Both the position numbers and the translations under genes were made by a program. A model generated the notes under the pieces. The model was not told the DNA's origin. It did no database searches and saw only the letters and a list, made by a program, of their open reading frames with translations. Source: Casimicrobiaceae bacterium (lineage in GTDB: Bacteria; Pseudomonadota; Gammaproteobacteria; Burkholderiales; Casimicrobiaceae). From it: a DNA stretch of 64,000 nucleotides. The stretch is from NCBI GenBank assembly GCA_035623155.1, contig DASPTZ010000093.1, positions 3,367 through 67,366 on the forward strand, in the 5' to 3' direction. Shown in pieces: positions 18,359-44,277 of this stretch. The stretch's first letter is position 1; each line of letters starts with the position of its first letter.

Positions 18359-18569
18359 CGTTTTTCCGCGGTTGTCGCGCCGGTGCCGGCCGCGCTTGAA
18401 TGGGGATGATAGCTGCCGCGCGCGTTCGAGGGAACCGGAGCCGCGCTGCCACCGGTTGCTTCTATGCTTATGCTCTCGGAAGAGCCTGACGCGAGGAACC
18501 CGCGACCGGTAAAATATACGATTTGTCTGCCATGCGATCGCCTGTGCATCCGCAGGCGAATCACGGAAT

Positions 18570-22091: not shown

Positions 22092-22217
22092 GACCGCCGA
22101 GGGCGACCTTGTAAGATTTACTCGCCTGCAAGATCCGGTTACAAAATAAGTCGCAGGAACCGCGAACCTCCTCCGGGCAGCGCAGTCGCAACGGGGTCAT
22201 CGCTTGTTGCGCGCTGA

Positions 22218-26058: not shown

Positions 26059-26133
26059 ACGCCTTTGTGCAAGAAGAGGAGAGCGGCGGTATTATGTTCG
26101 AAAGCGCCGAACCGCGCGAGGAAGACTGCTGGC

Positions 26134-27333
26134 ATGGCGCACGGCCGGCCGAGCAAGTCACTTGCACAATTCACCAGCATGATTCGCGACGCCGACACGC
26201 TTGCGCTGCTGACCGAGAGCATCGGCCGCTTCGTGCGCGAGCGGCTGATTCCCAACGAAGCGCTGGTCGCCGAGACCGATGTTGTCCCGGAGCCGATCAT
26301 AGCCGAGATGAAGAAGCTCGGACTGTTCGGCCTGTCGATTCCCGAGGCTTACGGCGGCCTGGGCCTCACCATGGAAGAGGAAGTCGAGGTTGCCTTTGTA
26401 CTGGGAGGAACCTCACCCGCGTTCCGCTCGCTCATCGGCACCAACAACGGCATCGGCTCGCAGGGCATTATTCTCGACGGCACGGATGAGCAGAAGGCGC
26501 GGTATCTGCCAAGACTCGCGTCGGGCGAGCTCGTCGCGGCGTTCGCGCTGACCGAGCCCGGTTCCGGCTCCGACGCTGCGGCGCTGTCGACGACCGCGGT
26601 GCGCAGCGACGGGTACTATGTGCTCAACGGCACCAAGCGCTACATCACCAACGCTCCGGAGGCCGGGATCTTCACGGTGATGGCGCGCACGGATCCTGCC
26701 GACAAGAGCGCCCACGGCATCTCGGCGTTCATCGTCGAGCGCAGCACGCCGGGCCTGTCGCTGGGCAAGTTGGACCGCAAGATGGGGCAGCGCGGGGCGC
26801 ACACCTGCGACGTGATTTTCGAGGACTGCCGCGTGCCCGCGACTCAGCTCATAGGTGGCCGCGAAGGCGTGGGCTTCAGGACCGCGATGAAAGTGCTCGA
26901 CAAGGGTCGGCTTCACATCGCCGCGGTGTGCGTCGGTGTGTCCGAGCGCATGCTCTCCGACGCCCTTCGCTATTCGCTGGAGCGCAAGCAGTTCGGGCAG
27001 GCGATCGCCGAGTTTCAGCTGGTGCAGGCGATGCTCGCCGACAGCAAGACCGAGATCTACGCCGCGCGCTCGATGGTGCTGGACGCGGCGCGCCGCCGCG
27101 ACGAAGGACGCGACGTGGCGACCGAGGCCGCGTGCGCCAAGCTCTTCGCGTCGGAAATGTGCGGCCGTGTCGCTGATCGCGCGGTGCAGATCCACGGCGG
27201 CGCCGGCTACGTCAGCGACTACGCGATCGAGCGCTTCTACCGCGACGTGCGATTGTTCCGCATCTACGAAGGCACCAGCCAGATCCAGCAGCTCGTGATC
27301 GCGCGCAGCATGATCCGCGCGGCGAAGGCGTGA
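26134..27333 (+). CDS. Acyl-CoA dehydrogenase
   Basis: ATG 26134 with GAGGAAG 9 nt upstream; alternative ATG at 26179. '[15 protein letters not shown]', 'GTKRYITNA' and '[34 protein letters not shown]'. Confidence 0.85.
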
Positions 27334-27396: not shown

Positions 27397-28071
27397 ATGA
27401 GAGATTTCCCGGGCATCATCCTGACCGCCACGGTCTGGGCCTACTGGCTCGGGGCAGGCGGCATGGTCGTCCGCCTTCGCAGAAAATCACGGAGCTCGGC
27501 GGGGCTGATTCCCGAGCAACCGCTGGAGCGCCTGATGTGGCTTGTCTGGGTGCCGTTGGTCGTCGCCTGGAACGTCTTGCCGTATCTCGCGGTGGTGCGC
27601 CGTGTCCCATCGCTGCGCGTTCCGAATTTCGCTCTGGAAGAGCCCGCCTATGCCGCGCTTCGCGCCGCCGCCGCGCTCGCGGCGACCGTCTGCGTGATCC
27701 TGACGGCCTGGTGCTGGGCGCGCATGGGCAAGAGCTGGAGCATGGCGGTGAGCGAGCGCAACCGCGGCGAGCTTATCACCGACGGGTTGTTCGCGCGGGT
27801 GCGGCACCCGATCTATTCGCTGTCGATGCTGCTCATGGTGTGCTCGGCGGTGGTCGTTCCAACCCCGCCGGTGGTGGCCATTGCGCTCGTTCACATCTGG
27901 CTGATGCGCCTCAAGGCACGCAGCGAGGAGCGGCACCTGCTGAAAGTGCACGGCGACGCATACGCAAGCTACTTACGGCGCACGGGTCGTTTCGTGCCTC
28001 GCTTCGGCGCGACCGGTCCGGAGCCTCGCGCTGGCCCATGCCCACCCGATTCGCCGCGGTGCGGGCACTGA
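27397..28071 (+). CDS. Isoprenylcysteine carboxyl methyltransferase (ICMT)/phospholipid methyltransferase-family membrane protein
   Basis: Polytopic protein. 'ELITDGLFARVRHPIYSLSML' and 'RSEERHLLKVHGDAYASYLRRTGRFVP' form the ICMT/PEMT C-terminal signature. Confidence 0.75.
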   Translation: MRDFPGIILTATVWAYWLGAGGMVVRLRRKSRSSAGLIPEQPLERLMWLVWVPLVVAWNVLPYLAVVRRVPSLRVPNFALEEPAYAALRAAAALAATVCVILTAWCWARMGKSWSMAVSERNRGELITDGLFARVRHPIYSLSMLLMVCSAVVVPTPPVVAIALVHIWLMRLKARSEERHLLKVHGDAYASYLRRTGRFVPRFGATGPEPRAGPCPPDSPRCGH

Positions 28072-29087
28072 TCGGCGCGATCCTCGCCGCCGCCGCGGCG
28101 CTGCTATCGCTCGCATGCCCTGCATCGGACGGCTCAGGCGTCTCGGCACGGCTCGCGGCGCTTCCGCCGATCGACCCCGCGATCGAGGCACGTATTCTGG
28201 CTCTCGAGCCCGGCCGCATCACCGCCGAGGACGTTCGCGATCTCCTGTCGAAGGCGCCCGCGCCGCGGATCATCGGACTGCAGGGCAGCATTCCGCTGGT
28301 CACCATGCGTCCGTTCGCCGAGTTCCTGATCGCCATGGGATATCCGGAGTCGCGGCTGCGCGACCCGGCGGACGGTAGCCTCTCGCAGTCGAGCTTCGTC
28401 GACAGCGAAAAGCTCGCGGGCACGCTGGCGTGGTATTGCGAGCACGAAGGCATGATGCCCATGCTAATCGGCCACAGCCAGGGCGGGATGGCGGTGATCA
28501 AGGTGCTCTACGAGCTCGTCGGCGAGTTCAACGAGAAGATCTCCGTCTTTAATCCGATGACTGATATGTCCGAGCACCGCACAACGATCATCGATCCGCT
28601 CGACGGCAAGGAACGGCCGGTGGTCGGGCTCAAGGTTCCCTACGCCGCCGCGCTCGCCACCGGCAGGCTGCTGCGGATCCTGCTCGGCCAATGGACGATG
28701 GTGAGCCGGCTGCGGGCGATCCCCGACAGCGTCGATGAATTCACCGGCTTCATCATCGAGTGGGACTTGATTGCGCTCGGAGGCGACGAACCCTACCGCG
28801 GCGTCGGAGAAGCCAAGGTTCGCACGGTCAGACTGCCGGCGTCGACCAGCCATATCGGCATGCCGCTGACGAAGGAGCTCGCGTTGAACCCGCTCACCCG
28901 GTCCTGGATCGACAGCTATAGACCGGACGACGCCGCTGCGCCGCCTGTGGACGCCGGCATCGACACGTCCAATATCGTCCACGCCGCGGACATCTGGTAC
29001 AGCGTCAAGAAGCATTGGGCGCTCGAAGCGCAGAAACTCATTCGCGCGCGCCATGAGGGCAGCGTGGCGAAGAGCAGAGGTGAATGA
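28038..29087 (+). CDS. Lipoprotein, alpha/beta-hydrolase-like (GHSQGG), paralog A
   Basis: ATG 28038. Signal peptide plus lipobox 'LLSLAC'. Nucleophile elbow 'LIGHSQGGMA'. Paralogous to 30370-31443. Confidence 0.7.
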   Translation: MPTRFAAVRALIGAILAAAAALLSLACPASDGSGVSARLAALPPIDPAIEARILALEPGRITAEDVRDLLSKAPAPRIIGLQGSIPLVTMRPFAEFLIAMGYPESRLRDPADGSLSQSSFVDSEKLAGTLAWYCEHEGMMPMLIGHSQGGMAVIKVLYELVGEFNEKISVFNPMTDMSEHRTTIIDPLDGKERPVVGLKVPYAAALATGRLLRILLGQWTMVSRLRAIPDSVDEFTGFIIEWDLIALGGDEPYRGVGEAKVRTVRLPASTSHIGMPLTKELALNPLTRSWIDSYRPDDAAAPPVDAGIDTSNIVHAADIWYSVKKHWALEAQKLIRARHEGSVAKSRGE

Positions 29088-30370
29088 GACGGCTCAACCT
29101 GTTCCAGGCGACCATGCTGCGCTGGCGCGAGCTCTATCCCTACAGCGCCGTGCATGCAGTCCGGGTAAGCCAGCCGCTCGACGCGCCGCGCCTCGAGAGC
29201 AGAATCAATCGAGCGCTGGAAAGCTTCGGCTTGACCGGTCTTGCGCTCGATTCCGCTGCTCGCCGCTACGCCTGGCTCGGCGGTGCCGCGGCCGTCAAGC
29301 TCCACGTCCTTGCCGGCGGGCCCGACCCTTCCGCCGCCCGGGACGGTGAGATCGAGCGCCAGCTCAACATCGCATTCGATGCCGACGGGCGCATCGACCC
29401 GTTCCGTTTCTTTGCGATCGATGCCGATACGTCCTTCCATCTTGGCATCGGCTACGATCACTTCGTGGCGGCCGGCGACGCCATTGTGCGGCTCCTGAAG
29501 AACATCATCGACGGGGCCGCCGATGCGCGCCCCGCAGCGGCGCGGCCGAATCCGTATGCCCCGTCCTACGCGCACTTGTTCTGGCGCGAGAAGAGCGCAC
29601 TGCTCGCGGGGCTGGGGAGTCTGCAGAGGCTTGCCGCCGAGTGCCGCCGCGCGGCGCGGCCGCGATATCAGTCGCCCGAGGACGGCTACAACGCGTTCAC
29701 AAGCTTTAAAATCGAGCCGGCCGAGCGCGCCACGCTCGCGCGCGTTGCCGCGACGTGGCAGGTGTCTCTGCACGATCTTCTCCTGGCAATCTCGCTGGCA
29801 GCGTTCTCGACGCTTGCGCCGGAGCGGCGCAGCGCGCCGCGCCGCCGCGACATCGCGCTTGCGTCGATCGTGAACATTCGTGGCCAGATGGGGCGCGAAG
29901 CCGCGGACACGGTAGGCCCGTGCCTCGCGTCGTTTCGCGTGGGGCACAGCGTTCCGTCCGACATCAGCCTGCGCGAGCTGACGGCCGCCGTGCACGCGCA
30001 GACCGATCGCATCATGCGGCGCAAGCTCCACCTGCAGACGCTTCTGGCCATGGCCGTTGCGGGCTTGGAGTGGCGCTTCCTGTCGAGGGAACAGCGGCTG
30101 TGCTTCTACGCCAAGCACTACCCCGTTTGGGCAGGAATCACGTCGCTGAACATCAGCTCCCTGTGGGGCGGGCAGGGCGAGGCGGCGACGCCTCCGCAGT
30201 ACGTGCGCGCTGGATCGACCGGTCCTCTTGCGCCGATGACCATCGCCCTGACGACTTCCGGCGAGACGATCGAAGCAGGGCTCTCGTTTCGGACGACGGT
30301 GTACAGCCGCGACGTTGCGCAAAGGATTGCTGCTGGTATGCTTGCCTCGATCCGGTGTCTCGAACATTGA
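29084..30370 (+). CDS. Stand-alone condensation-domain-like acyltransferase (NRPS C / PapA5 / WS-DGAT superfamily)
   Basis: ATGA overlap with the upstream stop. 428 aa. 'HLGIGYDHFVAAGDA' is a variant of the HHxxxDG motif at the expected position, about 135 aa from the N-terminus. Confidence 0.6.
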   Translation: MRRLNLFQATMLRWRELYPYSAVHAVRVSQPLDAPRLESRINRALESFGLTGLALDSAARRYAWLGGAAAVKLHVLAGGPDPSAARDGEIERQLNIAFDADGRIDPFRFFAIDADTSFHLGIGYDHFVAAGDAIVRLLKNIIDGAADARPAAARPNPYAPSYAHLFWREKSALLAGLGSLQRLAAECRRAARPRYQSPEDGYNAFTSFKIEPAERATLARVAATWQVSLHDLLLAISLAAFSTLAPERRSAPRRRDIALASIVNIRGQMGREAADTVGPCLASFRVGHSVPSDISLRELTAAVHAQTDRIMRRKLHLQTLLAMAVAGLEWRFLSREQRLCFYAKHYPVWAGITSLNISSLWGGQGEAATPPQYVRAGSTGPLAPMTIALTTSGETIEAGLSFRTTVYSRDVAQRIAAGMLASIRCLEH

Positions 30371-31443
30371 TGATCGTGCACTTTTCGCTGCTGCGCGCGG
30401 CCCACGTGTTGGCGATGGCGCTCTTCGTGTCCGGCTGCGCCACGACGCCCGGTCGGTTAAACGAAGCCGCGCCTCCATCCGTGGTCGAACCCGGCTCGGT
30501 GTTGCGGTCGCTCGCGCTGGATCGCTCGGTCGAGGATCGCCTTCTCGCGCTCGACCCCGAACGCATCACCGAACGGGACGTAAGGACGACGCTCGCTCTC
30601 GTGCCGTCGCCGAGGATCATGCTGCTTCACGGCGGTCTCTATCCGACGCATCTGGTCATGGCTACCTTCGCCAGGTTCCTCATCGACCTCGGATATCCCG
30701 AGGCGAAGATCCGAGACCCCGTCGACCGCGAATACTCCTATAGTCCTTACGGTGACAGCTGGAGCAGCGCCGGCGCCATCGCCTGGTACTACGAACACGA
30801 CGGGGTGCGGCCGATGATGATCGGTCACAGCCAGGGCGGCATCCAGGCGATCAAGATCCTCTACGAGCTCGTCGGCTCGTACCGAAAGCAGATCGCGGTC
30901 TGGAATCCCCTCATTGGCTCCGCGGAAGACCGCTTCTCGATCACGGATCCGCTCACGGGCGCGGAACGCCCCGTGGTCGGCGGTGTGTGGGTGTCGTATA
31001 CCTCGGTCGTGGGCGCGGGTGGCGCCGCGCTCATGCTTCCGAACCAGTGGAGCATGATCAGCCGTTTGCACAAGATCCCGGATTCCGTCGAGGATTTCAC
31101 GGGGTTTGCGATTAATGTCGATTTGCTGGCTTGGGACTTCGGCGCGGACAAGGATCAGTACGGCCCGAACGGCACCGCACACGTGCGCAACGTGCAGTTG
31201 CCCGGGACATACAACCACGTGCTCATTCCGCTAACTGAGCGCGTCAAGGACGATCAGCGCATGCGCGACTGGGTCAACGCCTACGTCCCCGGCGCGGAGA
31301 ACCCCGAGCCGCCCGGCCTGACCGAGGGCAAGGCCTACAACGCCTTGTGGACTGCCGACGTCTGGTTCAGCATCAAGAAGCACTGGTGCCTCGAGGCGCA
31401 GCGCCTGGTTCGTGCGAAGAGGGCGCTGCTGGGCAAGAAGTGA
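30370..31443 (+). CDS. Lipoprotein, alpha/beta-hydrolase-like (GHSQGG), paralog B
   Basis: ATG 30370 shares 1 nt with the upstream TGA. Lipobox 'LFVSGC'. 'MIGHSQGGIQA', 'IPDSVEDFTGF' and 'WFSIKKHWCLEAQRLVRA' are shared with paralog A. Confidence 0.7.
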   Translation: MIVHFSLLRAAHVLAMALFVSGCATTPGRLNEAAPPSVVEPGSVLRSLALDRSVEDRLLALDPERITERDVRTTLALVPSPRIMLLHGGLYPTHLVMATFARFLIDLGYPEAKIRDPVDREYSYSPYGDSWSSAGAIAWYYEHDGVRPMMIGHSQGGIQAIKILYELVGSYRKQIAVWNPLIGSAEDRFSITDPLTGAERPVVGGVWVSYTSVVGAGGAALMLPNQWSMISRLHKIPDSVEDFTGFAINVDLLAWDFGADKDQYGPNGTAHVRNVQLPGTYNHVLIPLTERVKDDQRMRDWVNAYVPGAENPEPPGLTEGKAYNALWTADVWFSIKKHWCLEAQRLVRAKRALLGKK

Positions 31444-31582
31444 TGCGCGGGGCAGGAACGTTGCCCCGAAGAGCGGAGCGTGGGAAAATAACAATTTTTC
31501 CGAAGCGCCGCGCGGGCCGCCGGCCCGCGGCCGCCCATCCCGGTGCGCGTGGCTCGGGATAAATCCTCAGGTTCCTCGATCG

Positions 31583-32338
31583 ATGTCAGGCGCCCTCGCC
31601 GGAAAAGTTGCGCTCGTCACTGGCGCGTCGCGCGGCATCGGCCGCGCCGTCGCGCGCAAGCTGGCGTCGGCCGGCTGCGACGTGGCGGTGAACTACTACA
31701 ACAGCCACGACGAGGCGCAGCAGCTGTGCGTCGAGCTGCGCAGCCTGGGCCGCCGCGCCCACGCGGTCCAGGGCAGCGTCGGGGTGCCGGACAGCGTCGA
31801 CGAGATGTTCGCGGAGGTGCGCAAGCACTTCGATCGCATCGACATCGTGGTGAGCAACGCCGCATCGGGCGTGCTCAAGCCGGCGATGGAGATGTCACTC
31901 AAGCACTGGCGCTGGTGCCTGGAGACCAACGCCTTCGCGCTGGATCTGCTCGCGCAGCGGGCGGTACCGCTGATGAAGGACGGTGGCCGCATCATCGCCA
32001 TGTCAAGCCTGGGAGCCCAGCGGGCGATGCCCGACTACGGCTTCATCGGCGCGTCGAAGGCGGCGCTGGAGTCGCTGGCGCGAACGCTGGCGCAGGAGCT
32101 GGGTCCAAGGAACATCCGTGTCAACGTGGTGAGCGCGGGGGTGGTGGACACCGACGCGCTGGCCTACTTTCCCAATCGGGAGCAGCTGCTGGCCAACTTC
32201 GCGCAGCGCGCGCCAGCGGGGCCGGTGCTCACGCCAGACGACGTCGCCGGCGCGGTGTACCTGCTGTGCCTTCCCGAAGCGGCGATGATCAACGGGCACA
32301 CGCTCGTCGTCGACGGCGGCTTCTGCATATCGGGATGA
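31583..32338 (+). CDS. Enoyl-[ACP] reductase, FabL-like SDR
   Basis: 'VTGASRGIGRA'. Y-x6-K spacing 'PDYGFIGASKAALE', as in enoyl reductases, unlike the Y-x3-K of FabG. 'NAASGVLKPAMEMSLKHW' and 'DTDALAYFPNREQL' resemble B. subtilis FabL as I recall it. Confidence 0.7.
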   Translation: MSGALAGKVALVTGASRGIGRAVARKLASAGCDVAVNYYNSHDEAQQLCVELRSLGRRAHAVQGSVGVPDSVDEMFAEVRKHFDRIDIVVSNAASGVLKPAMEMSLKHWRWCLETNAFALDLLAQRAVPLMKDGGRIIAMSSLGAQRAMPDYGFIGASKAALESLARTLAQELGPRNIRVNVVSAGVVDTDALAYFPNREQLLANFAQRAPAGPVLTPDDVAGAVYLLCLPEAAMINGHTLVVDGGFCISG

Positions 32339-33105
32339 GCACGCCGATGCTCGTCGATTCCGGGCTCGCCGGCAAGGTCGCGATCGTGACCGGCGGCAGC
32401 CGCGGCATAGGCCGCGCCATCGTCGAGCTGCTGGCAGACGAGGGCGCCGACGTCACCTTCTTCTATCGGGGCAACGCAACCGCCGCGGCGGAGGTCGTCA
32501 CTGGCGGCCGTGCGGCGGGGCACAGCGTCGCTTCGGAGCAGGTCGATGTGCGCGACGCGAAGGCATGCGCGAGCGCCGTCGAGCGCGTCGCGGATCGCGC
32601 GGGGCGCGTCGACATCCTGGTGAACAACGCGGGGCTGATCCGCGACAACCAGCTCGCGGCGATGGAAGACGAGGACGTCGAGCTGGTCCTCGACACCAAC
32701 GTCGGCGGCGTGTTCAACATGACGCGCGCGGTCGTGCCGCATATGATCGTGCAGCGCTCGGGCAAGATCATCAATGTATCGTCGGTTGCGGGAGAGAAGG
32801 GCGGGCGCGGGCAGACCAACTACGCGGCGAGCAAGGGGGCGATCAATGCGTTCACGCGTTCGCTGGCGGTGGAGCTGGCACCGCGAAACGTGACCGTGAA
32901 CTGTGTCGCTCCTGGCGTTATCGACACCGAAATGTCGCAAGCGGTTCGCGACATGGCCGGAAACGAGGTAACTTCGCGCATCCTGCTCAAGCGCTACGGC
33001 AAGCCGCAGGAAGTAGCGTACGCGGTATGCTTTCTGGCTTCGCGCTACGCCGATTACATCACAGGACAGGTTTTCGCCGTCGACGGCGGCTTCAAGATGG
33101 AGTGA
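32335..33105 (+). CDS. fabG: 3-oxoacyl-[ACP] reductase
   Basis: ATGA overlap. 'VTGGSRGIGRA', 'NNAGLIRD', 'NYAASKGAINAFTRSLA' and 'VNCVAPGVIDTEM'. Confidence 0.85.
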   Translation: MSTPMLVDSGLAGKVAIVTGGSRGIGRAIVELLADEGADVTFFYRGNATAAAEVVTGGRAAGHSVASEQVDVRDAKACASAVERVADRAGRVDILVNNAGLIRDNQLAAMEDEDVELVLDTNVGGVFNMTRAVVPHMIVQRSGKIINVSSVAGEKGGRGQTNYAASKGAINAFTRSLAVELAPRNVTVNCVAPGVIDTEMSQAVRDMAGNEVTSRILLKRYGKPQEVAYAVCFLASRYADYITGQVFAVDGGFKME

Positions 33106-33110
33106 GGGAA

Positions 33111-33533
33111 ATGGGGCAAAACGACATCACCAAGGACGAGATCATGGCGGTCTATCCCAAGGTCGCCGAAACCATGGCCGACGCGCTCGGCTGCGACGTC
33201 GAGGACGTGAAGCTCGACGTGTCGCTGATCGAGGGGCTGGACGCGGAATCGATCGATTTCCTGGACATGGTCTTTCGCCTCGAGCGTGCGTTCAAGATCA
33301 AGATTCCGCGCGGGAAGATCGTCGAGAATGCCCGCGGCGATTTGCCCGAAGCCGAATTCGAGCAGAAGGGCATCGTCACCGACAAGGGCCTGGCGCAGCT
33401 CAAGGCCTATCTTTCCGAGATTCCCGCGGAGCGTTTCAAGACGCCGATGAAGGTCGCCGACATTCCGCGCCTTTTCACGCCGGAAACCTTCTGCAAGCTG
33501 GTCGTTCGCGCGCAGAAGGAGGCGGCGGCGTGA
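33111..33533 (+). CDS. Acyl carrier protein, atypically long (140 aa)
   Basis: ATG 33111. Phosphopantetheine-site region 'IEGLDAESIDFLDMVFRLERAF'. About 60 extra C-terminal residues. Confidence 0.75.
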   Translation: MGQNDITKDEIMAVYPKVAETMADALGCDVEDVKLDVSLIEGLDAESIDFLDMVFRLERAFKIKIPRGKIVENARGDLPEAEFEQKGIVTDKGLAQLKAYLSEIPAERFKTPMKVADIPRLFTPETFCKLVVRAQKEAAA

Positions 33534-33708
33534 GCAGGGAGCAGGGACCCGCGAAGCGGGATGCGACCGGCAGCGAATCGCCGCCTGCCGCCGACACGCT
33601 AGCGGGCCGTGCATTGCAGCCGATGCAAGGAGGCGGCGGCGTGAGCAGGGAGCAGGGACCCGCGAAGCGGGATGCGACCGGCAGCGAATCGCCGCCTGCC
33701 GCCGACAC
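33516..33708 (+). repeat. 82-nt perfect direct repeat (copies 33516-33597 and 33627-33708, 111 nt apart) duplicating the RBS/stop/start junction
   Basis: Both copies read aaggaggcggcggcgtgagcagggagcagggacccgcgaagcgggatgcgaccggcagcgaatcgccgcctgccgccgacac, compared base by base. Confidence 0.95.
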
Positions 33709-34552
33709 ACTGGCGGAGCATTTCGCGGCGTTCTCCTTCGTCGATCGCATCACCGAGCTCGAGCCGGCGAAGCGGGCGCGCGGGGTGTTCGCGATTCCTT
33801 CCGGCATCGGCGAGTTTCCGCGATGCCTCATTGCCGAAGCGGTGGGCCAGCTCGCGGCGTGGGTGTCGATGAGCGCGATCGAATATCGGGGGCGTCCGGT
33901 GGCGGCGCTCGCCGCAGAGACGCGCTTCTTCGGAGACGTTCGACCCGGCGAGACTCTCTCGCTTGGAGTCGAGATCGACAGCTGCGACGACGAGGCCGTT
34001 GCCTATGGCGGGTGGGCCAACGTAGGCGGCAAGCGCGTCCTCGAGCTCGCGCATTGCCTGGGGCCAATGCTGCCCGCAGCCGACTTCGACGCCCCCGAGG
34101 CGCTCCGCGAGCGCTTCGCGCTGCTCTGCGGCGCCGGTGCGCCGGCGGGGCGCTTTCACGGCGTGCAGCTTCCCACGCCCGAGGTGATCCGGCACGAGCC
34201 GGGCCGGTCGATCGCTGCGAGGCTGCAGGTGCCGGCGGCGGCGCCGTTCTTTGCTGATCATTTTCCGCGAAGGCCGGTGTTTCCAGCGACGCTTCTGCTC
34301 GATGCGCAGATCCGTCTGGCGACGCGACTCGTTCGCGAAGCGTCGACTGGCGGCGAGGGCGAGCTCGGCCTGCAGCGCATGACCAACGTCAAGGTGCGTT
34401 CCTTCACCCCGCCAGGCCAGGCACTCGAGCTCGGAGCCGAAGCGACCGTGCGCAACGACGGGCTGCGTGTCGCGCTGTCGGCGAGCGCCGCGGGCAAATC
34501 TGTCGCCACTGCGCGCGTCGAGTTCGGCCGCGCCACGGTGTTCGCCTCATGA
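33530..34552 (+). CDS. Double hot-dog fold (3R)-hydroxyacyl-ACP dehydratase (FabA/FabZ-like)
   Basis: GTG 33530 (GTGA overlap with the ACP stop). An identical alternative RBS+GTG lies at 33641 in repeat copy 2. Catalytic motif 'FFADHFPRRPVFPATLLLDA' sits in the second hot-dog. Confidence 0.75.
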   Translation: MSREQGPAKRDATGSESPPAADTLAGRALQPMQGGGGVSREQGPAKRDATGSESPPAADTLAEHFAAFSFVDRITELEPAKRARGVFAIPSGIGEFPRCLIAEAVGQLAAWVSMSAIEYRGRPVAALAAETRFFGDVRPGETLSLGVEIDSCDDEAVAYGGWANVGGKRVLELAHCLGPMLPAADFDAPEALRERFALLCGAGAPAGRFHGVQLPTPEVIRHEPGRSIAARLQVPAAAPFFADHFPRRPVFPATLLLDAQIRLATRLVREASTGGEGELGLQRMTNVKVRSFTPPGQALELGAEATVRNDGLRVALSASAAGKSVATARVEFGRATVFAS

Positions 34553-35865
34553 GCTCCGCACGGCGCCGGGTCGCGATCACAGGCTTGGGGCTGGTGACGC
34601 CAGTCGGCAACGACGTCGCCACCAGTTGGGCTGGGTTGCTTCACGGCCGCAGCGGCGTCGCCTCGATCAGCTTGTTCGACGCGAGCGGCTTCAGCACCCG
34701 CATCGCCGCCGAAGTGAAGAACTTCAGCGATAAGGCCATAACCGCCGAGCGCAAGCTGCTCAAATTGGCGGGCCGCTCGCATCGCTTTGCGCTGGCCGCG
34801 GCCGAGCAAGCTTTTCGCGACGCGGGTATCGCACCCACGCCAGAGAATGCTCATCGCTGGGGTTGCTCGGTCGGAACCGGCATGATGGGTGTGGCCTACG
34901 AGGATCTCGCGGCGATCCAGCGGCACTCGGCGGCCGACGGCGAGCTGCACCCCGATCGGCTGCTGGACGATGACGCCGCCAACGATCCGCTGGTGTTTTG
35001 CCGCAGCCAGTCGACAACAGGCGTGTCTTTGCTCACCAGACGCTTCGGGATCTGCGGCTACGCGACCTCGGTCCACACGGCTTGCGCTTCAGGCGGGCAG
35101 GCGATCGGCACCGCGCTCAAGATCATTCGCCGCGGCAATGCCGACTACGCGCTCGCCGGCGGCTTCGACTCGATGGTGAGCCCCGTCGGCTTGGCCGGCT
35201 TCTGCCTGCTCTCCGCGGTCTCGGCGGACAACGACACGCCCGAGCGCGCGAGCCGTCCCTTCGACCGCACGCGCAACGGCTTCGTGTTGGGCGAGGGCGC
35301 CGGCTTTCTGGTCCTCGAGGAATGGGAGTCCGCCCGGCGCCGCGGCGCTCGCATCTACGCCGAGCTGGCGGGCGACGGGAACTCGCTTTCCTCCTACCGC
35401 ATCACCGATTCTCCTCCCGACGGCGACGGGCCCATCCAGTCCATGCGCGCGGCGCTCGCCGACGCCGGCGCATCGCCGGCGGACGTCGACTACATCAATG
35501 CCCACGGCACCTCGACCTTCATGAACGACAAGAGCGAGTCGGCGGCGATTCATGTTGTCTTTGGCCAGAAGACCGATCGCGTCTCGGTGAGCTCGACCAA
35601 GAGCACCATGGGACATCTCATTGCCGCGGCCGGCGCGGTCGAGGTCGTCGCCTGCGCGCTCGCGATCCATCACGGCGAGATGCCCGTCAACGCCAATCTG
35701 CTCGAGCGCGATCCGGATTGCGACTTGAACCTGGTCGTCGGCGGGCCGCAACAAAGGCGGCTGCGCATGACGCTGTCCAACTCCTTCGGCTTCGGCGGCT
35801 CCAACAGTTGCGTCGCGCTGCGCGACCCCGAGGAAGTAGATGGCGCCGGTGCGACGCGCGCCTGA
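34549..35865 (+). CDS. Beta-ketoacyl-[ACP] synthase (KAS I/II family)
   Basis: ATGA overlap. 'VAITGLGLVTPVG', active-site 'HTACASGGQA', 'NAHGTSTFMND' and 'SSTKSTMGHLIAAAG'. Confidence 0.85.
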   Translation: MSSARRRVAITGLGLVTPVGNDVATSWAGLLHGRSGVASISLFDASGFSTRIAAEVKNFSDKAITAERKLLKLAGRSHRFALAAAEQAFRDAGIAPTPENAHRWGCSVGTGMMGVAYEDLAAIQRHSAADGELHPDRLLDDDAANDPLVFCRSQSTTGVSLLTRRFGICGYATSVHTACASGGQAIGTALKIIRRGNADYALAGGFDSMVSPVGLAGFCLLSAVSADNDTPERASRPFDRTRNGFVLGEGAGFLVLEEWESARRRGARIYAELAGDGNSLSSYRITDSPPDGDGPIQSMRAALADAGASPADVDYINAHGTSTFMNDKSESAAIHVVFGQKTDRVSVSSTKSTMGHLIAAAGAVEVVACALAIHHGEMPVNANLLERDPDCDLNLVVGGPQQRRLRMTLSNSFGFGGSNSCVALRDPEEVDGAGATRA

Positions 35866-35881
35866 GTTGTCATAGTCTCGC

Positions 35882-37156
35882 ATGGCTGGCGAACGAGTCC
35901 TGATCACCGGCTCCGGTGCAGTCTGCGGCTCGGGCACCTCTCCGGACGCGATCATCTCGGCGGTGCGCGCGGGACGCTCGGCCATCGGCACGATCCGGCA
36001 ATGGGACACGAGCGGGTGGCCGGTCACCATCGCTGCGGAGATGCCTGACTTCAATCCGCGGGCTCTGGTCGAGGATCGCAAGCTGCACAAGTTCATTCGC
36101 CGCACCGACATGTTCGGCATTTACGCCGGCAGCCAGGCGGTCGACGCGGCAGGTTTCAGCGCTTACCGCGACTCGCTCGACGCGACCACCGCCGCGCAGT
36201 TCTCGGATCGCAGCGGTGTGTACGTCGGCTCCGGCGGCGGCGCCTACAACACGCAGTACGAGTATTTCCCGCTGATGAGCGAGGCCCATGGAGATATGGG
36301 GGCGTTCGGCCGCGATCTCGCCAGCGTGGTGAATCCCATGTGGCTGCTGCGCACGCTGCCCAACAACGTGCTCTGCCACGTCGGGATCAAGTACAACCTG
36401 AAGGGCGCGAACGCCTGCATTACCAATCACAGCTGTGGCGGCACGCTGGCCGTGATCGAGGCGGCCGAGGCGCTGCGTGAGGGCGAGGCCGATCGCGCGG
36501 TGGCCGTCGGCCACGACGCGCTCATCGAGCCGCAGATGGTGCTCTACTATCACCAGTGCGGATTGCTTGCGCAGGACACGATCCGTCCATTCGACGCGCG
36601 ACGCAGCGGCAGCGTCTTCGGCGAGGGGGCGGGGGCGCTTACGCTGGAAACCGAGGGCTCGGCGAAGGAGCGCAACGCCAAGGTGATCGGTGAGGTGCTC
36701 GGCGGCGGCTACGCCGCGGAGGCGCTGGGTCTGCTCGCGATCCGCGACGATGGCGACGGGCTCGAGCGCGCGATTCGCCAGGCTCTCGCCGGCGCAGGGC
36801 TCGCGCCGGCTGACATCGGCATGATCGTCACCCATGGCAACGGCACGCCGCAATCCGATGCGTCCGAAGCTGCCGCCATCCGCAACGTCTTCGGCGGCGA
36901 CGCGCCGCCGGCCACCGCATTCAAGTGGTCGATCGGGCACCTGATCGCCGGTGCTGGCATCGTCGAGACCGTGCTGGCGCTTGGCTGCCTGCGCCAAGGC
37001 GTCGTTCCGGGCGTGGCAACGCTGGAGGAGCCCGATCCGGTGTGCGAAGGCGTGCGTGTCACGAAGGCCGAGCAACAGCCGCGCAGCGACACCGCAATCA
37101 TCCTCTGCCGCGGCTTTGCTGGCACCAACGCGGCGCTCATCGTCCGTTCGGTTTGA
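35882..37156 (+). CDS. Beta-ketoacyl-[ACP] synthase paralog (divergent; Cys and both His retained)
   Basis: 'VLITGSGAVCGSG', 'ITNHSCGGTLA', 'THGNGTPQSD' and 'KWSIGHLIAGAG'. Confidence 0.75.
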   Translation: MAGERVLITGSGAVCGSGTSPDAIISAVRAGRSAIGTIRQWDTSGWPVTIAAEMPDFNPRALVEDRKLHKFIRRTDMFGIYAGSQAVDAAGFSAYRDSLDATTAAQFSDRSGVYVGSGGGAYNTQYEYFPLMSEAHGDMGAFGRDLASVVNPMWLLRTLPNNVLCHVGIKYNLKGANACITNHSCGGTLAVIEAAEALREGEADRAVAVGHDALIEPQMVLYYHQCGLLAQDTIRPFDARRSGSVFGEGAGALTLETEGSAKERNAKVIGEVLGGGYAAEALGLLAIRDDGDGLERAIRQALAGAGLAPADIGMIVTHGNGTPQSDASEAAAIRNVFGGDAPPATAFKWSIGHLIAGAGIVETVLALGCLRQGVVPGVATLEEPDPVCEGVRVTKAEQQPRSDTAIILCRGFAGTNAALIVRSV

Positions 37157-37160
37157 CCCG

Positions 37161-38414
37161 ATGCATGCCGCCGAACCGGCAGCCGGCGAGGCGACGCGTT
37201 GCGGCATCGACACCGTCGAAATCGTGCGCATAGAGCGGTTGCTTGCCGACGCCGCTCCCGACGAGTTGACCAAGATCTTCTCGGCGCAAGAAATACTAGA
37301 CAGCGGCGAGGGACCGGGACGGGCGGCGAGCCTGGCGGCGCGCTTCGCCGCCAAGGAGGCGTGCGCCAAGCTCTTTCCGCGCGAGCTTGCGCTGGGGCTG
37401 ATCGAGCAGGCGGACTTCTCGGTCGTGCGCGATGCCTACGGCGCGCCGCAGGTCGCATGCACACCGGGAGCGCAAGCGGTGCTCGACCAGCAGCGAATCC
37501 GGTCGATCGCCGTTTCGCTGACTCACGACCGCGTCAGCGCATCGGCGGTGGCGCTGGCACTGCCGGCGCAGGCTCACGTTGCATTCGCGGGCAAGCTCCT
37601 TTTCTACGCGCTGCCGGTGCGCCGCGCGGTGATCCTCGACAACCTGCGCCTCGTGTTCGGCGCGGCGGTGCCCGAGGCCGAGGTGAGGCGCCTTGCGCAG
37701 GCGCATTATGGGCACCTGTGGCGGCTCTTCTGCGAATTCCTGCGTTTCCGCTGGCTTTCCTCGGCTCGGCAGGCGGCGATCGTGAGCACCGAAGTCGACG
37801 CACTGAGCCGGGCCCTCGCTCTGCGCAAAGGCGTGCTGGTTCTCACCGGGCACTTCGGCAATTTCGAGGTTGCGACCATCGCCGGGCTCGCCAACTTTCC
37901 GCAAATGCACGGACGGATACACTTCGTGCGCCGGGCGATCAAGCCGCGCTGGCTCGATGCGATGGTTACGCGGCGCTTCAGGCGTGCAGGCTTCGGGGTG
38001 ATGGCCAAGCGCGGCTCGCTCGATGCGATCCTAGAGCGCCTCGCCGCCGGAGACGTGATCGTCTTCCCTTTCGATCAGCACGCGAGCCCGCCGGACGGCA
38101 TCGAGGTGGATTTCTTCGGGCATCCGGCGTGGACCTTCAAGAGTCTCGCCATTATCGCGCTCGCCACCGGAGCGCCCGTGCTGCCGGCAGCGAGCTGGCG
38201 CGAACCCGACGGACGGCACGTGCTGCGTTTCGAGGAGGCGCTGCCGCTGATCGAGTGCGAAAATGCGAACGAGGAGATTCGGCGCAACACGCGCTCGTAC
38301 AACGCAGCGCTGGAGCGGCTCGTGCTCCGCCATCCCGAGCAATGGTTCTGGGTGCATCGACGGTGGAAGCGCGTCGCCCGCAGCGGAGCCTCGGCAAAGT
38401 CGACACGCTCGTAG
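37161..38414 (+). CDS. Fusion protein: AcpS-type 4'-phosphopantetheinyl transferase + LpxL/HtrB-family (LPLAT) acyltransferase
   Basis: N-terminal part: 'GIDTVEIVRIERL', 'ARFAAKEACAKL' and 'VSLTHDR' (AcpS). C-terminal part: 'LTGHFGNFE' (H-x4-E) and 'HPEQWFWVHRRWK' (LpxL-family tail). Confidence 0.75.
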   Translation: MHAAEPAAGEATRCGIDTVEIVRIERLLADAAPDELTKIFSAQEILDSGEGPGRAASLAARFAAKEACAKLFPRELALGLIEQADFSVVRDAYGAPQVACTPGAQAVLDQQRIRSIAVSLTHDRVSASAVALALPAQAHVAFAGKLLFYALPVRRAVILDNLRLVFGAAVPEAEVRRLAQAHYGHLWRLFCEFLRFRWLSSARQAAIVSTEVDALSRALALRKGVLVLTGHFGNFEVATIAGLANFPQMHGRIHFVRRAIKPRWLDAMVTRRFRRAGFGVMAKRGSLDAILERLAAGDVIVFPFDQHASPPDGIEVDFFGHPAWTFKSLAIIALATGAPVLPAASWREPDGRHVLRFEEALPLIECENANEEIRRNTRSYNAALERLVLRHPEQWFWVHRRWKRVARSGASAKSTRS

Positions 38415-38514
38415 GATCCCAGTTTAAGTGTGGGCAGGTGCTTGGAGAGAGCCGCATGGGCGGCGTTCTGGCATATGATGCGAATTCGCGCGTGAGCGGC
38501 AGGAGGAGTGCGAC

Positions 38515-39411
38515 GTGAAGTGGCAAGACATGCGGGAAAGCGAAAATGTCGAAGAGCGTTCGGGCGGAGGTGGTGTCCCTTTCGGCGGCGGAATGCGTCT
38601 GGGAGGAGGGGCGATCCTCGTCATCGTGGTGGTGAGCGTGCTCCTCGGCAAGAATCCTCTGGAAATGCTCGCGTTGTTGGGCGGCGGCGGAGGCCCACCG
38701 GTTCAGACGCAGTCCGTGACTCCCGGACCCGCGGTCTCTGGTCCTCGGCCGGCGGAAGATCCGGAGCGCAGGTTCGTCGCCAAGGTGCTGGGCGACACGG
38801 AAGATTTCTGGAGCAACACCTTCAGCCAGATGGGTGCGCGCTACGAGGCTCCGAGGCTCGACCTGTTCAAGGACAGCGCAGATTCGGCATGCGGTCTCGC
38901 CCAGCCGGCGATCGGCCCGTTCTACTGTCCCGGCGATCGGGAGGTCTATCTCGAGCGCGACTTCTTTCGGGAGTTGTCGCAGCGCTTCGGTGCGCCGGGC
39001 GATTTTGCCCGTGCCTACGTGATAGCCCACGAGGTCGGCCATCATGTCCAGAATCAGCTTGGACTCATGGACAAAGCCCAGGCGAGGATGGCCGCTGCGT
39101 CGGGACCCCAACGCAACGCGCTATCGGTGCGTCTGGAGCTGCAGGCAGACTGCCTTGCCGGTGTATGGGGCAACTCCGCCGCGAAGCGAGGCCTGATCGA
39201 TGCGAGCGACGTCGACTCCGGCATCGCGGCGGCAATGGCTGTCGGCGACGATCGACTGCAGAGAGCCGCGGGCAGGAATGCCGTCGTTCCCGAGCAGTTC
39301 ACCCACGGCTCGTCGCAGCAGCGCGCCGAGTGGTTCAAGATCGGGCTCGAGTCCGGCGACATCAGACAGTGCAACACCTTCGCCTCGGCTGCGTCGGGCC
39401 GCAGCCGCTAG
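38515..39411 (+). CDS. ypfJ: YpfJ-family putative neutral zinc metallopeptidase
   Basis: GTG 38515 after AGGAGGAG. 'MKWQDMRESENVEERS', one TM segment and 'IAHEVGHHVQ' (HExxH). Confidence 0.85.
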   Translation: MKWQDMRESENVEERSGGGGVPFGGGMRLGGGAILVIVVVSVLLGKNPLEMLALLGGGGGPPVQTQSVTPGPAVSGPRPAEDPERRFVAKVLGDTEDFWSNTFSQMGARYEAPRLDLFKDSADSACGLAQPAIGPFYCPGDREVYLERDFFRELSQRFGAPGDFARAYVIAHEVGHHVQNQLGLMDKAQARMAAASGPQRNALSVRLELQADCLAGVWGNSAAKRGLIDASDVDSGIAAAMAVGDDRLQRAAGRNAVVPEQFTHGSSQQRAEWFKIGLESGDIRQCNTFASAASGRSR

Positions 39412-39489
39412 GATCGACTCGCCGGAGCTGGCGCCGCCGTCCGTCCATCGCGCTTTGCGCCGTCACCCGGGCTATAATTGGCAGCCATC

Positions 39490-40428
39490 ATGGATGCTAC
39501 GATACTCCAGAGCCTGCCCAATCTGCTCGCGCCCAAGTATTTCATCCTGTACGCGTTCATTGCGTCGGCCGTCTTCGTTCATTACCGCGGCCGGGTACGC
39601 CACCGCTTCTACCGCCAGCTCACCGATCACTCGACGTTCATGGCGCCGTACAACGTGCTCATGTACATGTTCTCGGCGGTGCCGAACAAGCCGTTCATCG
39701 AGGTCGACAAGTTCCCCGAGCTCAAGAAACTCACCGACAACTGGCAGACGCTGCGACAGGAGGCTCTGCAGCTCTTCGACGAGGGGTACATCCGCGCTGC
39801 GGCGAAGTACAACGACCTCGGGTTCAACTCGTTCTTTCGCCGCGGCTGGAAGCGCTTCTACGTCAAATGGTACGACGAGCCTCTGCCGTCGGCGAAGGCG
39901 CTGTGTCCCAAGACCGTCGAGCTGGTGCAGTCGATTCCGTCGGTGAATGGCGCGATGTTCGCGCTGCTGCCGCCCGGGGGCGACCTGGGGAGGCATCGCG
40001 ACCCCTTCGCCGGCTCGCTGCGCTATCACCTGGGTCTGTCGACGCCCAACTCGGAGAAATGCCGCATTTTCGTCGACGGCGAGCCGTACTACTGGCGCGA
40101 CGGCGAAGCGGTAGTCTTCGACGAGACCTTCATCCACTGGGCGGAGAACAAGACCGACCAGACACGCGTGATCCTGTTCTGCGACGTCGAGCGGCCGCTC
40201 AAGAGCCGGATCATGGCCAAGTTCAATCACTGGTACGAGAGCACGGTGATCCGGGCCAGCCAGACCGAGAACATGGAAGGCGACCGGGTCGGCGTGCTCA
40301 ACCACATCTTCAGCGTCGCGTACTACTTGCGTCTCCCCGGCAAGGCGCTCAAGCGCAAGAGCAAGCTGGCCTACTACGTGGTCAAGTGGGCGATCGTCCT
40401 CGGGCTGCTCTACCTGCTGTTCCGCTGA
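39490..40428 (+). CDS. lpxO: Aspartyl/asparaginyl beta-hydroxylase-family Fe(II)/2-OG dioxygenase, LpxO-like lipid hydroxylase
   Basis: N-terminal TM 'YFILYAFIASAVFVHYRGRVRHRF', 'GGDLGRHRDPFAGSLRYHLGL' and a C-terminal TM. Architecture matches LpxO/OlsC. Confidence 0.65.
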   Translation: MDATILQSLPNLLAPKYFILYAFIASAVFVHYRGRVRHRFYRQLTDHSTFMAPYNVLMYMFSAVPNKPFIEVDKFPELKKLTDNWQTLRQEALQLFDEGYIRAAAKYNDLGFNSFFRRGWKRFYVKWYDEPLPSAKALCPKTVELVQSIPSVNGAMFALLPPGGDLGRHRDPFAGSLRYHLGLSTPNSEKCRIFVDGEPYYWRDGEAVVFDETFIHWAENKTDQTRVILFCDVERPLKSRIMAKFNHWYESTVIRASQTENMEGDRVGVLNHIFSVAYYLRLPGKALKRKSKLAYYVVKWAIVLGLLYLLFR

Positions 40429-40474
40429 GCAGGGTCGAGTTCGTCGGAACCAAAGCGCCGGACACAGAGGTTGC

Positions 40475-44267: not shown

Positions 44268-44277
44268 GATCCGCAAC

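Follow-up and report, generated by a model that had tools for sequence, protein, structure and literature searches.

This report concerns a cluster of lipid-biosynthesis genes in a stretch of 64,000 nucleotides from a Casimicrobiaceae bacterium (NCBI GenBank assembly GCA_035623155.1, contig DASPTZ010000093.1, positions 3,367 to 67,366 of the forward strand), called the window in what follows. Eleven genes, g1 to g11, lie on the + strand at window positions 27397-38414. They encode a membrane methyltransferase (g1), two lipoproteins (g2 and g4), a stand-alone enzyme of the condensation-domain (C-domain) fold (g3), a type II fatty-acid synthase with its own acyl carrier protein (ACP) (g5-g10), and a fusion of an AcpS-type phosphopantetheinyl transferase (PPTase) with an LpxL-family acyltransferase (g11). 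From these predicted functions, the cluster probably builds a cell-envelope lipid, most likely a modified lipid A.

The window has a G+C content of ~66%. All eleven open reading frames (ORFs) translate without interruption, and G+C at third codon positions (GC3) is 0.80-0.90 in each. Neighboring ORFs overlap by 34 nt at 28038, by ATGA at 29084, 32335 and 34549, by GTGA at 33530, and by 1 nt at 30370; the remaining junctions are gaps of 4-16 nt, plus a single 139-nt gap at 31444-31582. An earlier note on this DNA, made from the sequence alone, had given the same gene count and junctions, and the motifs it quoted were all located (PDYGFIGASK, FFADHFPRRPVFPATLL, HTACASGG, NHSCGG, HFGNFE, YDHFVAAGD and two copies of GHSQGG). 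The ACP gene starts at the ATG at 33111, not at 33114 as first reported, and the public gene call of the contig places the FabG start at 32347, 12 nt later than 32335. An Rfam scan of 25-42 kb gave no match at E <= 1.

Related loci were taken from a search of one genome per GTDB species, with 10 kb of flanking DNA on each side of the hit. Relatives of g3 were found at 253 places, in as many species-level genomes, and the best 80 were inspected; these are all Casimicrobiaceae or Betaproteobacteria metagenome-assembled genomes (MAGs), whose taxon labels may carry binning errors. The g3 family has >600 close relatives in a 90% identity database, where the named ones are again Casimicrobiaceae or Betaproteobacteria MAGs, and a g3 profile search of 1.8 billion representatives gave 397 clusters (50% identity) at E <= 1e-30. 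No functional name was found among the sampled family members, which are called 'hypothetical', 'condensation domain-containing' or 'NRPS condensation-like uncharacterized protein'. By tblastn of the eleven proteins, g1, g3 and g5-g11 are all present with their order kept in 56 of the 57 sufficiently long loci; recurrence of this order in so many independent loci puts the eleven-gene arrangement well outside chance. Across loci the identity of the synthase genes is 70-95%, versus 44-63% for g3. The description of the operon as an orphan in the earlier note is not upheld by this distribution, and the halves at 27.4-31.4 kb and 31.6-38.4 kb, whose joint conservation it had left in question, are conserved together.

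The synthase half opens with g5 (31583-32338, 251 aa), a FabL-type enoyl-ACP reductase that passes the NCBIfam FabL equivalog model (347 bits, cutoff 328), as the earlier assignment implied. The Tyr and Lys of its Y-x6-K motif are invariant in 70 of 70 homologs, and its identity across loci is itself 70-95%. The product of g6 (32335-33105, 256 aa, with the alternative start at 32347) is a FabG-like 3-oxoacyl-ACP reductase (adh_short 1e-61), which falls below TIGR01830 (273 bits, cutoff 298) and passes the FabG subfamily model NF009466 (241 > 222). The ACP encoded by g7 (33111-33533, PP-binding 4e-8) has 140 aa, with an extra ~50 aa after helix II/III, and PDB ACPs match its residues 8-75 only. 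All 70 homologs keep its Ser47, in LDAESID; the best NCBIfam ACP model gives 45.6 bits, under the cutoff of 66. Long ACPs (140-146 aa) also occur in the Verrucomicrobiae-type clusters described below.

The dehydratase gene, g8 (33530-34552), encodes a double hot-dog protein of the FabA/FabZ type, with Pfam FabA matched over two stretches (3e-14) and FabZ at 6e-18. Its homologs match the ApeI-like family PF22818, and the active-site His in DHFP is retained in 59 of 60 of them. Pfam thus agrees with the earlier calls of a FabG-like ketoreductase, an ACP and a double hot-dog dehydratase. The start of g8 is ambiguous because a 111-nt tandem duplication at 33516-33716 on the + strand (1.8 copies, 97% match by Tandem Repeats Finder, TRF) repeats the junction of ACP stop, AAGGAGG ribosome-binding site (RBS) and GTG start. 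The duplication yields a repeated 25-aa N-terminal peptide and two candidate starts (33530 and 33641), and the protein is 340 aa here versus 268-292 aa in homologs.

Two ketosynthase (KS) genes follow. KS1, from g9 (34549-35865), is FabF-like with a Cys-His-His triad. It scores 441 bits on the fabF model TIGR03150, passes PRK07314 (429 > 387) and stays below the cutoffs of the remaining NCBIfam ketosynthase models, those not for FabF. All 58 homologs share HTACASGG, HGTST and the His of GHL without change, and both Pfam and NCBIfam agree with the earlier FabF-like assignment of KS1. KS2, from g10 (35882-37156), is not a second enzyme of this kind. The earlier note had both paralogs retaining Cys/His/His, which stands for the whole triad of KS1 and for the two His of KS2 (His318 and His353, kept in 51 of 51 homologs) and fails at the KS2 Cys. 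In an ungapped BLASTP alignment T-A-C of KS1 lies opposite N-H-S of KS2, so that Ser184 occupies the catalytic-Cys position; among 51 homologs this column holds Ser in 47, Cys in 2 (the rearranged clusters L089 and L092) and Gly in 2. The Cys of NHSCGG, Cys185, is one residue off the catalytic position and is not conserved (Cys 17, Ala 14, Ile 10, Val 10). Ser at this position argues for pairing of KS2 with KS1 in the manner of a chain-length factor (CLF): on these residues the pair is KS/CLF-like, nearer to aryl-polyene and type II polyketide synthase (PKS) logic than to two active FabF enzymes. The complete elongation cycle claimed earlier holds for the four cycle activities, enoyl reductase included, which are all encoded, and does not extend to FabD and FabH, which are absent.

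The last gene, g11 (37161-38414), joins an AcpS-type PPTase (aa 14-133, Pfam ACPS 1e-8) to an acyltransferase of the LpxL/PatA family (aa 141-404, Lip_A_acyltrans 5e-38). The AcpS half exceeds the cutoffs of Pfam ACPS (35.7 bits > 25) and TIGR00556 (51.6 bits > 45.35), and against PDB the protein matches AcpS, PatA and LpxM, each at ~1e-7. Residues G15, D17, K65, E66, K70, H122, H231, G233 and E236 are invariant in 44 homologs, distant ones included, as is the H-x4-E motif of the transferase. With both Pfam domains and the catalytic residues of both halves in place, the PPTase-LpxL fusion noted before is well founded. We take D17 and E66 to be the Mg-binding Asp and Glu, and K65 and K70 to be catalytic Lys residues. 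Retention of the catalytic residues indicates that the AcpS domain can activate the 140-aa ACP. The transferase half finds its best NCBIfam matches among lipid A late acyltransferases. An N-terminal membrane anchor is typical of LpxL and LpxM; in g11 no 19-residue window reaches 1.6 on the Kyte-Doolittle scale, and the Pfam match begins at profile position 39. A long-read MAG (L084, 16939-18232) has the two halves of the fusion, AcpS and LpxL, annotated as distinct genes 175 nt apart, which may be due to a frameshift or an error of assembly and not to a genuine split.

The hub gene is g3 (29084-30370, 428 aa). Its fold was recognized from structure, Pfam alone giving no match: PF00668 is unmatched at E <= 0.01 and PapA_C reaches 16 bits against a cutoff of 30. 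In a Foldseek search of PDB, its AlphaFold2 (AF2) model (pLDDT 88) matches the C domains of nonribosomal peptide synthetases (NRPSs) with E 4e-19 and probability 1.0, sharing the two-lobed, CAT-like C-domain fold. The top TM-score, 0.77, is to AzeD, and SgcC5 and the enacyloxin C domain are also among the fold matches; the C-domain assignment made earlier from the letters is thereby confirmed by structure. Many g3 homologs do carry PF00668 in a precomputed table. Neither a transmembrane (TM) segment nor a signal peptide was found in g3, and tblastn of g3 and g4 against 72,556 plasmids gave no match for either.

Profile alignment places Y-D-H-x3-(G/A)-G-D of g3 on the C-domain motif HHxxxDG. 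Among 335 aligned sequences the second His is retained in each common motif form of both clades. The first His is Asp, or Phe in the Verrucomicrobiae-labelled clade, and the motif Asp is Gly or Ala in the Casimicrobiaceae clade and retained in the Verrucomicrobiae-labelled one (Y-F-H-x3-D). Stand-alone members of the C family (PapA5, VibH, SgcC5, enacyloxin Bamb_5915 and the 'C_standalone' clade of AzeD) share with g3 the two-lobed CAT/C-domain fold, a free-standing length of ~430 aa and the second His of HHxxxDG. In contrast to them, g3 has Asp or Phe for the first His, Gly or Ala for the Asp in the Casimicrobiaceae clade, and a fatty-acid synthase as partner rather than an NRPS or PKS. Stand-alone C-family enzymes take a carrier-protein-bound donor, and g3 is assumed to do the same.

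The context of distant g3 family members separates a core from accessory genes. A MAG labelled Verrucomicrobiae and a related contig (loci L089 and L091) carry, in order, genes for a hexapeptide-repeat protein, the C-fold enzyme, two short-chain dehydrogenases/reductases (SDRs), a 144-aa ACP, an ApeI-like dehydratase, two KSs and the AcpS::LpxL fusion, with no ICMT and no lipoprotein. Two other distant loci have the C-fold gene, lipoprotein gene(s) and ICMT gene and then the synthase. A low-GC gammaproteobacterial MAG has only the C-fold, lipoprotein and ICMT genes, set between housekeeping genes, and some g3 homologs are solitary or adjoin a pyridoxal-phosphate (PLP) enzyme. These contexts point to a cross-phylum core of C-fold enzyme, FabL, FabG, 140-aa ACP, ApeI-like dehydratase, KS, CLF-like KS and AcpS::LpxL. 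The ICMT and lipoprotein genes appear as an accessory module tied to the C-fold enzyme that also occurs without the synthase, a grouping missed by the earlier note. Between Casimicrobiaceae and the Verrucomicrobiae-labelled loci the synthase genes are 55-70% identical, with 65-70% in one comparison with a MAG so labelled, against ~33% for the C-fold gene, a disparity that suggests horizontal transfer of the synthase module, or mis-binning.

Several observations on the variant loci stand apart from this core. The hexapeptide-repeat gene lies directly upstream of the C-fold gene in both loci that have it (L089 9299-9850, L091 3964-4539); its product, presumably akin to the gamma-carbonic-anhydrase/PaaY family from its sequence type, is 81% identical between the two, and their g3 homologs are only ~33-35% identical to that of the window. 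A NodU/CmcH-type carbamoyltransferase gene lies between the lipoprotein gene and FabL in 4 of 57 loci, and an AMP-binding ligase gene just upstream of the ICMT gene in 7 of 57. Loci with these variants are L083 (12502-14700 and 6675-8270), L019, L041, L054 and L055. The variants give a hint of a free hydroxyl or amine on the product and of alternative starter loading.

The accessory module of the window begins with g1 (27397-28071, 224 aa), an integral-membrane methyltransferase of the ICMT/PEMT family. Pfam matches (ICMT 9e-10, PEMT 1e-7) and at least 4 hydrophobic segments support this earlier call; the NCBIfam isoprenylcysteine methyltransferase model gives 70.8 bits, under its cutoff of 160, and the match to LmtA is weak. 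Identity of g1 across related loci is 38-73%. Its last ~25 codons (27997-28071) are found in this contig alone, and their final 34 nt form the overlap with g2; the homologs have 193-212 aa and terminate before or at the start of the lipoprotein gene.

The two lipoprotein paralogs, g2 (28038-29087, 349 aa) and g4 (30370-31443, 357 aa), are 43% identical and resemble divergent alpha/beta hydrolases. Alignment of 24 family members shows no variation at the lipobox Cys, the GHS of GHSQGG, one Asp and one His, in keeping with the twin GHSQGG lipoproteins described earlier. The single hydrophobic segment of g2 is N-terminal. Neither protein has a Pfam or NCBIfam match, and across all 24 members searches at E <= 1 give merely sporadic traces of Abhydrolase_6 or LCAT; the g4 model (AF2, pLDDT 79) matches the alpha/beta-hydrolase fold only weakly by Foldseek (E ~3e-3). 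Two copies are present in 40 of 57 loci and one in 17. The most apt description of g2 and g4 is that of secreted lipoproteins acting as serine hydrolases or transferases and forming a new family.

The 139-nt gap between g4 and g5 holds a candidate sigma-70-type promoter at 31461-31489 on the + strand, found by cross-locus comparison: a -35 element TTGCCC (31461-31466), a 17-nt spacer and a -10 element GAAAAT (31484-31489), with a predicted 5' untranslated region (UTR) of ~90 nt before FabL. A TTGNNN-N16-18-GATAAT-like motif occurs upstream of FabL in 36 of 68 loci, versus 0.05 expected from shuffles, at a median of 86 nt before the ATG. This conserved motif marks a predicted internal promoter ahead of the synthase half. 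The earlier note had drawn attention to three hairpins in this gap. Inverted repeats do exist there; their stability is no better than chance (z = -0.98, with 27 of 200 shuffles folding equally well), so hairpins were rejected as a feature and the gap is read as a conserved promoter. A generic promoter/terminator scan found nothing over the shuffle background and missed the promoter at 31461-31489. At the 5' end of the cluster, many of the loci L005-L035 have, ~50-90 nt upstream of the ICMT gene, -10-like elements GCAGTAAAAT or GGTAAAAT, or TTGCCC-N17-TACCCT, which suggests a second conserved promoter. In the window only 63 nt lie upstream of g1, with no clear match to the -10-like elements.

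Downstream of g11, an LpxO-like gene (39478-40428, +) is a frequent twelfth gene, overlooked in the earlier note. Its product is a putative Fe2+/2-oxoglutarate-dependent acyl 2-hydroxylase (Pfam Asp_Arg_Hydrox 1e-47) with two terminal TM segments. It scores 464 bits on NCBIfam lipid_A_LpxO (cutoff 500), matching positions 1-296 of 297, and 114 bits on OlsC. In 28 of 50 loci it is the next gene after g11, despite differing outer flanks. In the window a YpfJ-like zinc metallopeptidase gene intervenes (38515-39411, +; Pfam Zn_peptidase 2.5e-100, NCBIfam equivalog passed); it follows g11 in only 2 of 50 loci and looks like a recent, lineage-specific insertion outside the system. A 660-aa ORF at 38508-40490 was rejected as spurious, its tblastn matches being off-frame shadows of the LpxO-like gene. 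Linkage evidence was not found for a class-3 lipase gene (41851-42765, -) and a B12-binding radical-SAM gene (44122-45837, +) a few kb further on.

Upstream of the cluster (18513-23264 and 24535-27333) are genes for a 1192-aa Pyr_redox_2 flavoprotein, a GT4 glycosyltransferase, a DUF3096 protein, a 3-hydroxyacyl-CoA dehydrogenase (-) and an acyl-CoA dehydrogenase. The last of these (26134-27333) was considered as a cluster member and rejected, being conserved only in the two closest loci. Locus L083 is syntenic with the window through the flavoprotein, glycosyltransferase and 3-hydroxyacyl-CoA dehydrogenase genes, with the acyl-CoA dehydrogenase replaced by the AMP-ligase.

Two known systems bear the closest comparison. 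The acpXL-fabZXL-fabF2XL-fabF1XL-adhA2XL-lpxXL cluster of rhizobia and Agrobacterium has been experimentally defined for very-long-chain acylation of lipid A (PMC11901934). As in the present cluster, the gene for a dedicated ACP precedes those for a dehydratase and two FabF-family proteins, an LpxL/MsbB-family acyltransferase gene comes last, and all genes lie on one strand in two transcription units (PMC11901934). The present cluster differs in having its own enoyl reductase and ketoreductase, a PPTase fused to the transferase, a double hot-dog ApeI-like dehydratase, a 140-aa ACP, a CLF-like KS2 and the C-fold enzyme, and often the ICMT-like gene, lipoprotein hydrolases and LpxO. No adhA2XL-type gene is present, the gap from g10 to g11 being 4 nt, nor is there one in any variant, and no NCBIfam equivalog cutoff is reached by the acyltransferase (119 bits versus 248) or the ACP (45.6 versus 66). 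The g11 transferase further differs from LpxL and LpxM in having no membrane anchor.

Aryl-polyene (APE) clusters share with the present one a type II KS with a Cys-less partner, a ketoreductase (KR), an ApeI-type dehydratase, a private ACP and a membrane-anchoring LPLAT-type acyltransferase. In the apeA-apeS cluster of Escherichia coli CFT073 the LPLAT is ApeD, the lipoprotein ApeA and the S-adenosylmethionine (SAM) methyltransferase ApeB (PMC8253772), so that a lipoprotein and a SAM methyltransferase are found in both (PMC8253772). The methyltransferase here is, in contrast, of the membrane ICMT family, and the C-fold enzyme and the AcpS fusion are not listed among the E. coli APE functions (PMC8253772). 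FabL is a further difference, since with an enoyl reductase the chain would be saturated and not polyenic. Most loci have no aromatic-starter ligase. No thioesterase, glycosyltransferase, or LolA/LolB/RND export gene was found in the window cluster or six variant loci. Judged by its genes, the cluster operates in the same way as AcpXL/LpxXL and aryl-polyene clusters, with a type II synthase on a private ACP supplying an LPLAT-type acyltransferase, and is a member of neither: not of the former because the equivalog cutoffs are not reached and adhA2XL has no counterpart, and not of the latter because an enoyl reductase is present and export genes were not found. Literature searches (Pfam names, COG4908, Casimicrobium lipids, cluster composition) gave no characterised equivalent, and database searches agreed, as the earlier note had expected. 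We found no characterised precedent for the C-fold hub enzyme, the AcpS::LpxL fusion, the long ACP or the ICMT-lipoprotein module.

Two cytoplasmic enzymes of the cluster come from ACP-dependent acyl-transfer families, the LpxL-type domain of g11 and the C-fold g3. Tentatively, and with somewhat less than even confidence, we favor a reading in which late acylation of lipid A by the LpxL-type domain draws on a private, fully reducing type II synthase, and the C-fold enzyme serves as a second off-loader. The cluster would then be a two-promoter envelope-lipid pathway built around this synthase. KS2 would pair with KS1 as a chain-length or initiation factor and may prime synthesis by decarboxylating malonyl-ACP, which would account for the lack of FabH; FabD would be supplied by primary metabolism. 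A saturated chain of defined and possibly unusual length would be made de novo on the private ACP. The LpxL-type domain would add it as a secondary (acyloxyacyl) substituent to lipid A or a precursor at the inner face of the inner membrane, a step with precedent in rhizobial LpxXL acting with AcpXL-bound acyl chains, and LpxO, where present, would hydroxylate the transferred chain at C2. The C-fold enzyme would move a second ACP-bound acyl group to another hydroxyl or amine of the same lipid. From the cytoplasmic side the ICMT-like enzyme would methylate a phosphate or carboxylate, as LmtA does, and the lipoprotein serine hydrolases would act on an ester in the periplasm, trimming or transferring it. 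Delivery of a saturated chain to lipid A and/or to an amine or alcohol head group, as proposed in the earlier note, is plausible.

Lipid A is favored as acceptor because the gene order ACP-dehydratase-KS-KS-...-LpxL-type transferase parallels the acpXL-lpxXL cluster (PMC11901934), because the transferase half of g11 best matches lipid A late acyltransferases, because an LpxO close to its equivalog cutoff travels with the cluster, and because relatives of ICMT include the lipid A phosphate methyltransferase LmtA, weak as that match is. No transporter gene was found by Pfam annotation in the window cluster or six variant loci, which fits export by the general MsbA/Lpt route, and the higher identity of the synthase genes than of g3 is as expected for a core envelope component under strong constraint.

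Other findings weigh against lipid A. The best lipid A acyltransferase model gives g11 119 bits against a cutoff of 248 and none of these models reaches its cutoff; g11 has no predicted N-terminal anchor of the LpxL/LpxM type, and its sequence matches PatA, not a lipid A enzyme, as well as it does LpxM. The Verrucomicrobiae-type clusters and 20 of the 50 loci have no LpxO gene, rhizobial adhA2XL has no counterpart, and the triad of ICMT, lipoprotein and C-fold genes also exists alone. We know of no lipid A role for C-domain enzymes, although across phyla no gene is more tightly linked to the synthase than g3. Proteins with the C fold are able to carry out other chemistry, and the nearest solved structure to g3, AzeD, is a stand-alone C-family dehydratase, not an acyltransferase, so that acyl transfer by g3 is something we only infer.

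The main rival reading, possible if on the unlikely side, is that the cluster evolved convergently as a fourth way of making acyloxyacyl amino lipids like ornithine lipid. In this reading the C-fold enzyme would N-acylate an amino acid or amine with 3-hydroxyacyl-ACP drawn from the private synthase, and the LpxL-type domain would esterify the 3-hydroxyl with completed, saturated acyl-ACP; tailoring would consist of LpxO/OlsC-type hydroxylation, ICMT/PEMT-type methylation and the action of periplasmic lipoprotein esterases after flipping. The ornithine-lipid pathways (OlsBA, OlsF, OlsH-OlsG-OlsI) likewise combine an N-acylating and an O-acylating activity with a PEMT/ICMT-like methyltransferase, an alpha/beta hydrolase and an LpxO-family 2-hydroxylase, and the cross-phylum core here has exactly two off-loaders, one from an amide-forming and one from an acyloxyacyl-ester-forming family. 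Each accessory enzyme class has an ornithine-lipid precedent (PMC12971839, PMC12493201): OlsC and OlsD are homologous to LpxO, OlsG is a methyltransferase resembling PEMT (PMC12971839), and in the OlsH-OlsG-OlsI operon, where OlsI is an alpha/beta-hydrolase O-acyltransferase, non-homologous enzymes have converged on ornithine lipid (PMC12493201). The absence of a membrane anchor from g11 also speaks for an amino lipid, as do the presence of SgcC5 and the enacyloxin C domain, stand-alone enzymes with free acceptors, among the g3 fold matches, a PLP-dependent (PALP) gene directly upstream of the g3 homolog in L088, and the triad of C-fold, lipoprotein and ICMT genes without a synthase, which is expected if housekeeping acyl-ACP can be the donor. 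Yet the hydroxylase linked to the cluster scores far higher on LpxO than on OlsC (464 versus 114 bits), and the hydrolases are secreted periplasmic lipoproteins, which therefore cannot be cytoplasmic O-acyltransferases like OlsI. Known ornithine-lipid pathways run on the housekeeping AcpP and need no private synthase (PMC12971839), whereas the donor here would be a private ACP, and no head-group biosynthesis gene is conserved in the cluster. No Lip_A_acyltrans member is known to act on an amino lipid, and no C-domain enzyme is known in amino-lipid synthesis. By Pfam annotation no PlsC-type (OlsA-like) or GH3-type (OlsH-like) protein is encoded in the window cluster or the variant loci, the sequences of OlsB, OlsA, OlsF and OlsH themselves not having been compared. 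A more specific form of this route, which we regard as improbable, is a methylated acyloxyacyl amide lipid made by a convergent pathway in which the C-domain enzyme and the anchor-less LpxL-type domain replace OlsB and OlsA, both working on the private ACP, and in which a methyl ester is put on and taken off. The C-fold enzyme, the ICMT-like methyltransferase and the periplasmic lipoprotein esterase, a conserved triad, would make up this cycle. Cytoplasmic carboxyl methylation would neutralise the lipid so that it crosses the inner membrane without a transporter, and a periplasmic esterase would restore the charge and trap the lipid in the envelope. Analogues of such masking and unmasking are ICMT and methylesterase acting on prenylcysteine, and BioC and BioH in biotin synthesis.

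The KS pair raises another reading. Identity with the aryl-polyene clusters was rejected on the presence of FabL and on export genes not being found, and a saturated-chain cousin of them seems unlikely to us. In such a cousin a KS/CLF-type type II system would build a specialised acyl chain, the LPLAT-type domain would anchor it to a glycerolipid or lyso-lipid instead of lipid A, and the C-fold enzyme would add or release a head group, giving a specialised membrane lipid or lipid-anchored metabolite. KS2 is CLF-like, the dehydratase homologs match the ApeI-like family, and E. coli APE clusters likewise combine ACPs, KS and CLF, KR, dehydratases, LPLAT, lipoprotein and SAM methyltransferase (PMC8253772); the AMP-ligase (7 of 57 loci) and carbamoyltransferase (4 of 57) genes are typical of tailoring or loading. 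Against this, the FabL equivalog is encoded in every variant and the chain would be reduced, not polyenic, KS1 is nearest to housekeeping FabF, and no LolA/LolB-like or RND export gene, thioesterase, glycosyltransferase or aromatic-starter gene was found in the window cluster or the variant loci. The synthase half could also be a housekeeping fatty-acid synthase lying beside unrelated envelope genes by chance. The very strong conservation of the FabL, FabG, ACP and KS1 genes (70-95% identity) agrees with that, as do the scores of KS1, FabG and FabL near or over the cutoffs of primary-metabolism models. We nevertheless consider it very improbable: the 140-aa ACP with its large insertion is unlike AcpP, KS2 has no catalytic Cys, no fabH, fabD, plsX or acc gene is present in the window cluster or variant loci, and wherever the synthase occurs, in other phyla and in rearranged clusters too, g3 and the AcpS::LpxL fusion accompany it. 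Lipid A acylation fed by the private synthase remains the reading we favor.

Casimicrobiaceae and soil Verrucomicrobia are abundant, with few cultured members, and are core in soil and activated-sludge communities. Casimicrobium huifangae SJ-1 is in culture and can be transformed (PMC13515534). On sequence evidence the system is conserved in hundreds of uncultured soil and sludge bacteria. The identity of its product would establish for these groups a new envelope lipid, or else a new decoration of lipid A, and would give function to a large family of stand-alone C-domain enzymes and to a family of lipoprotein hydrolases without Pfam models. It would also show a KS/CLF-type system turned into a fully reducing, chain-length-defined fatty-acid synthase. 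The cluster offers a concrete test of whether C-domain enzymes, besides secondary-metabolite assembly, take part in the assembly of membrane lipids.

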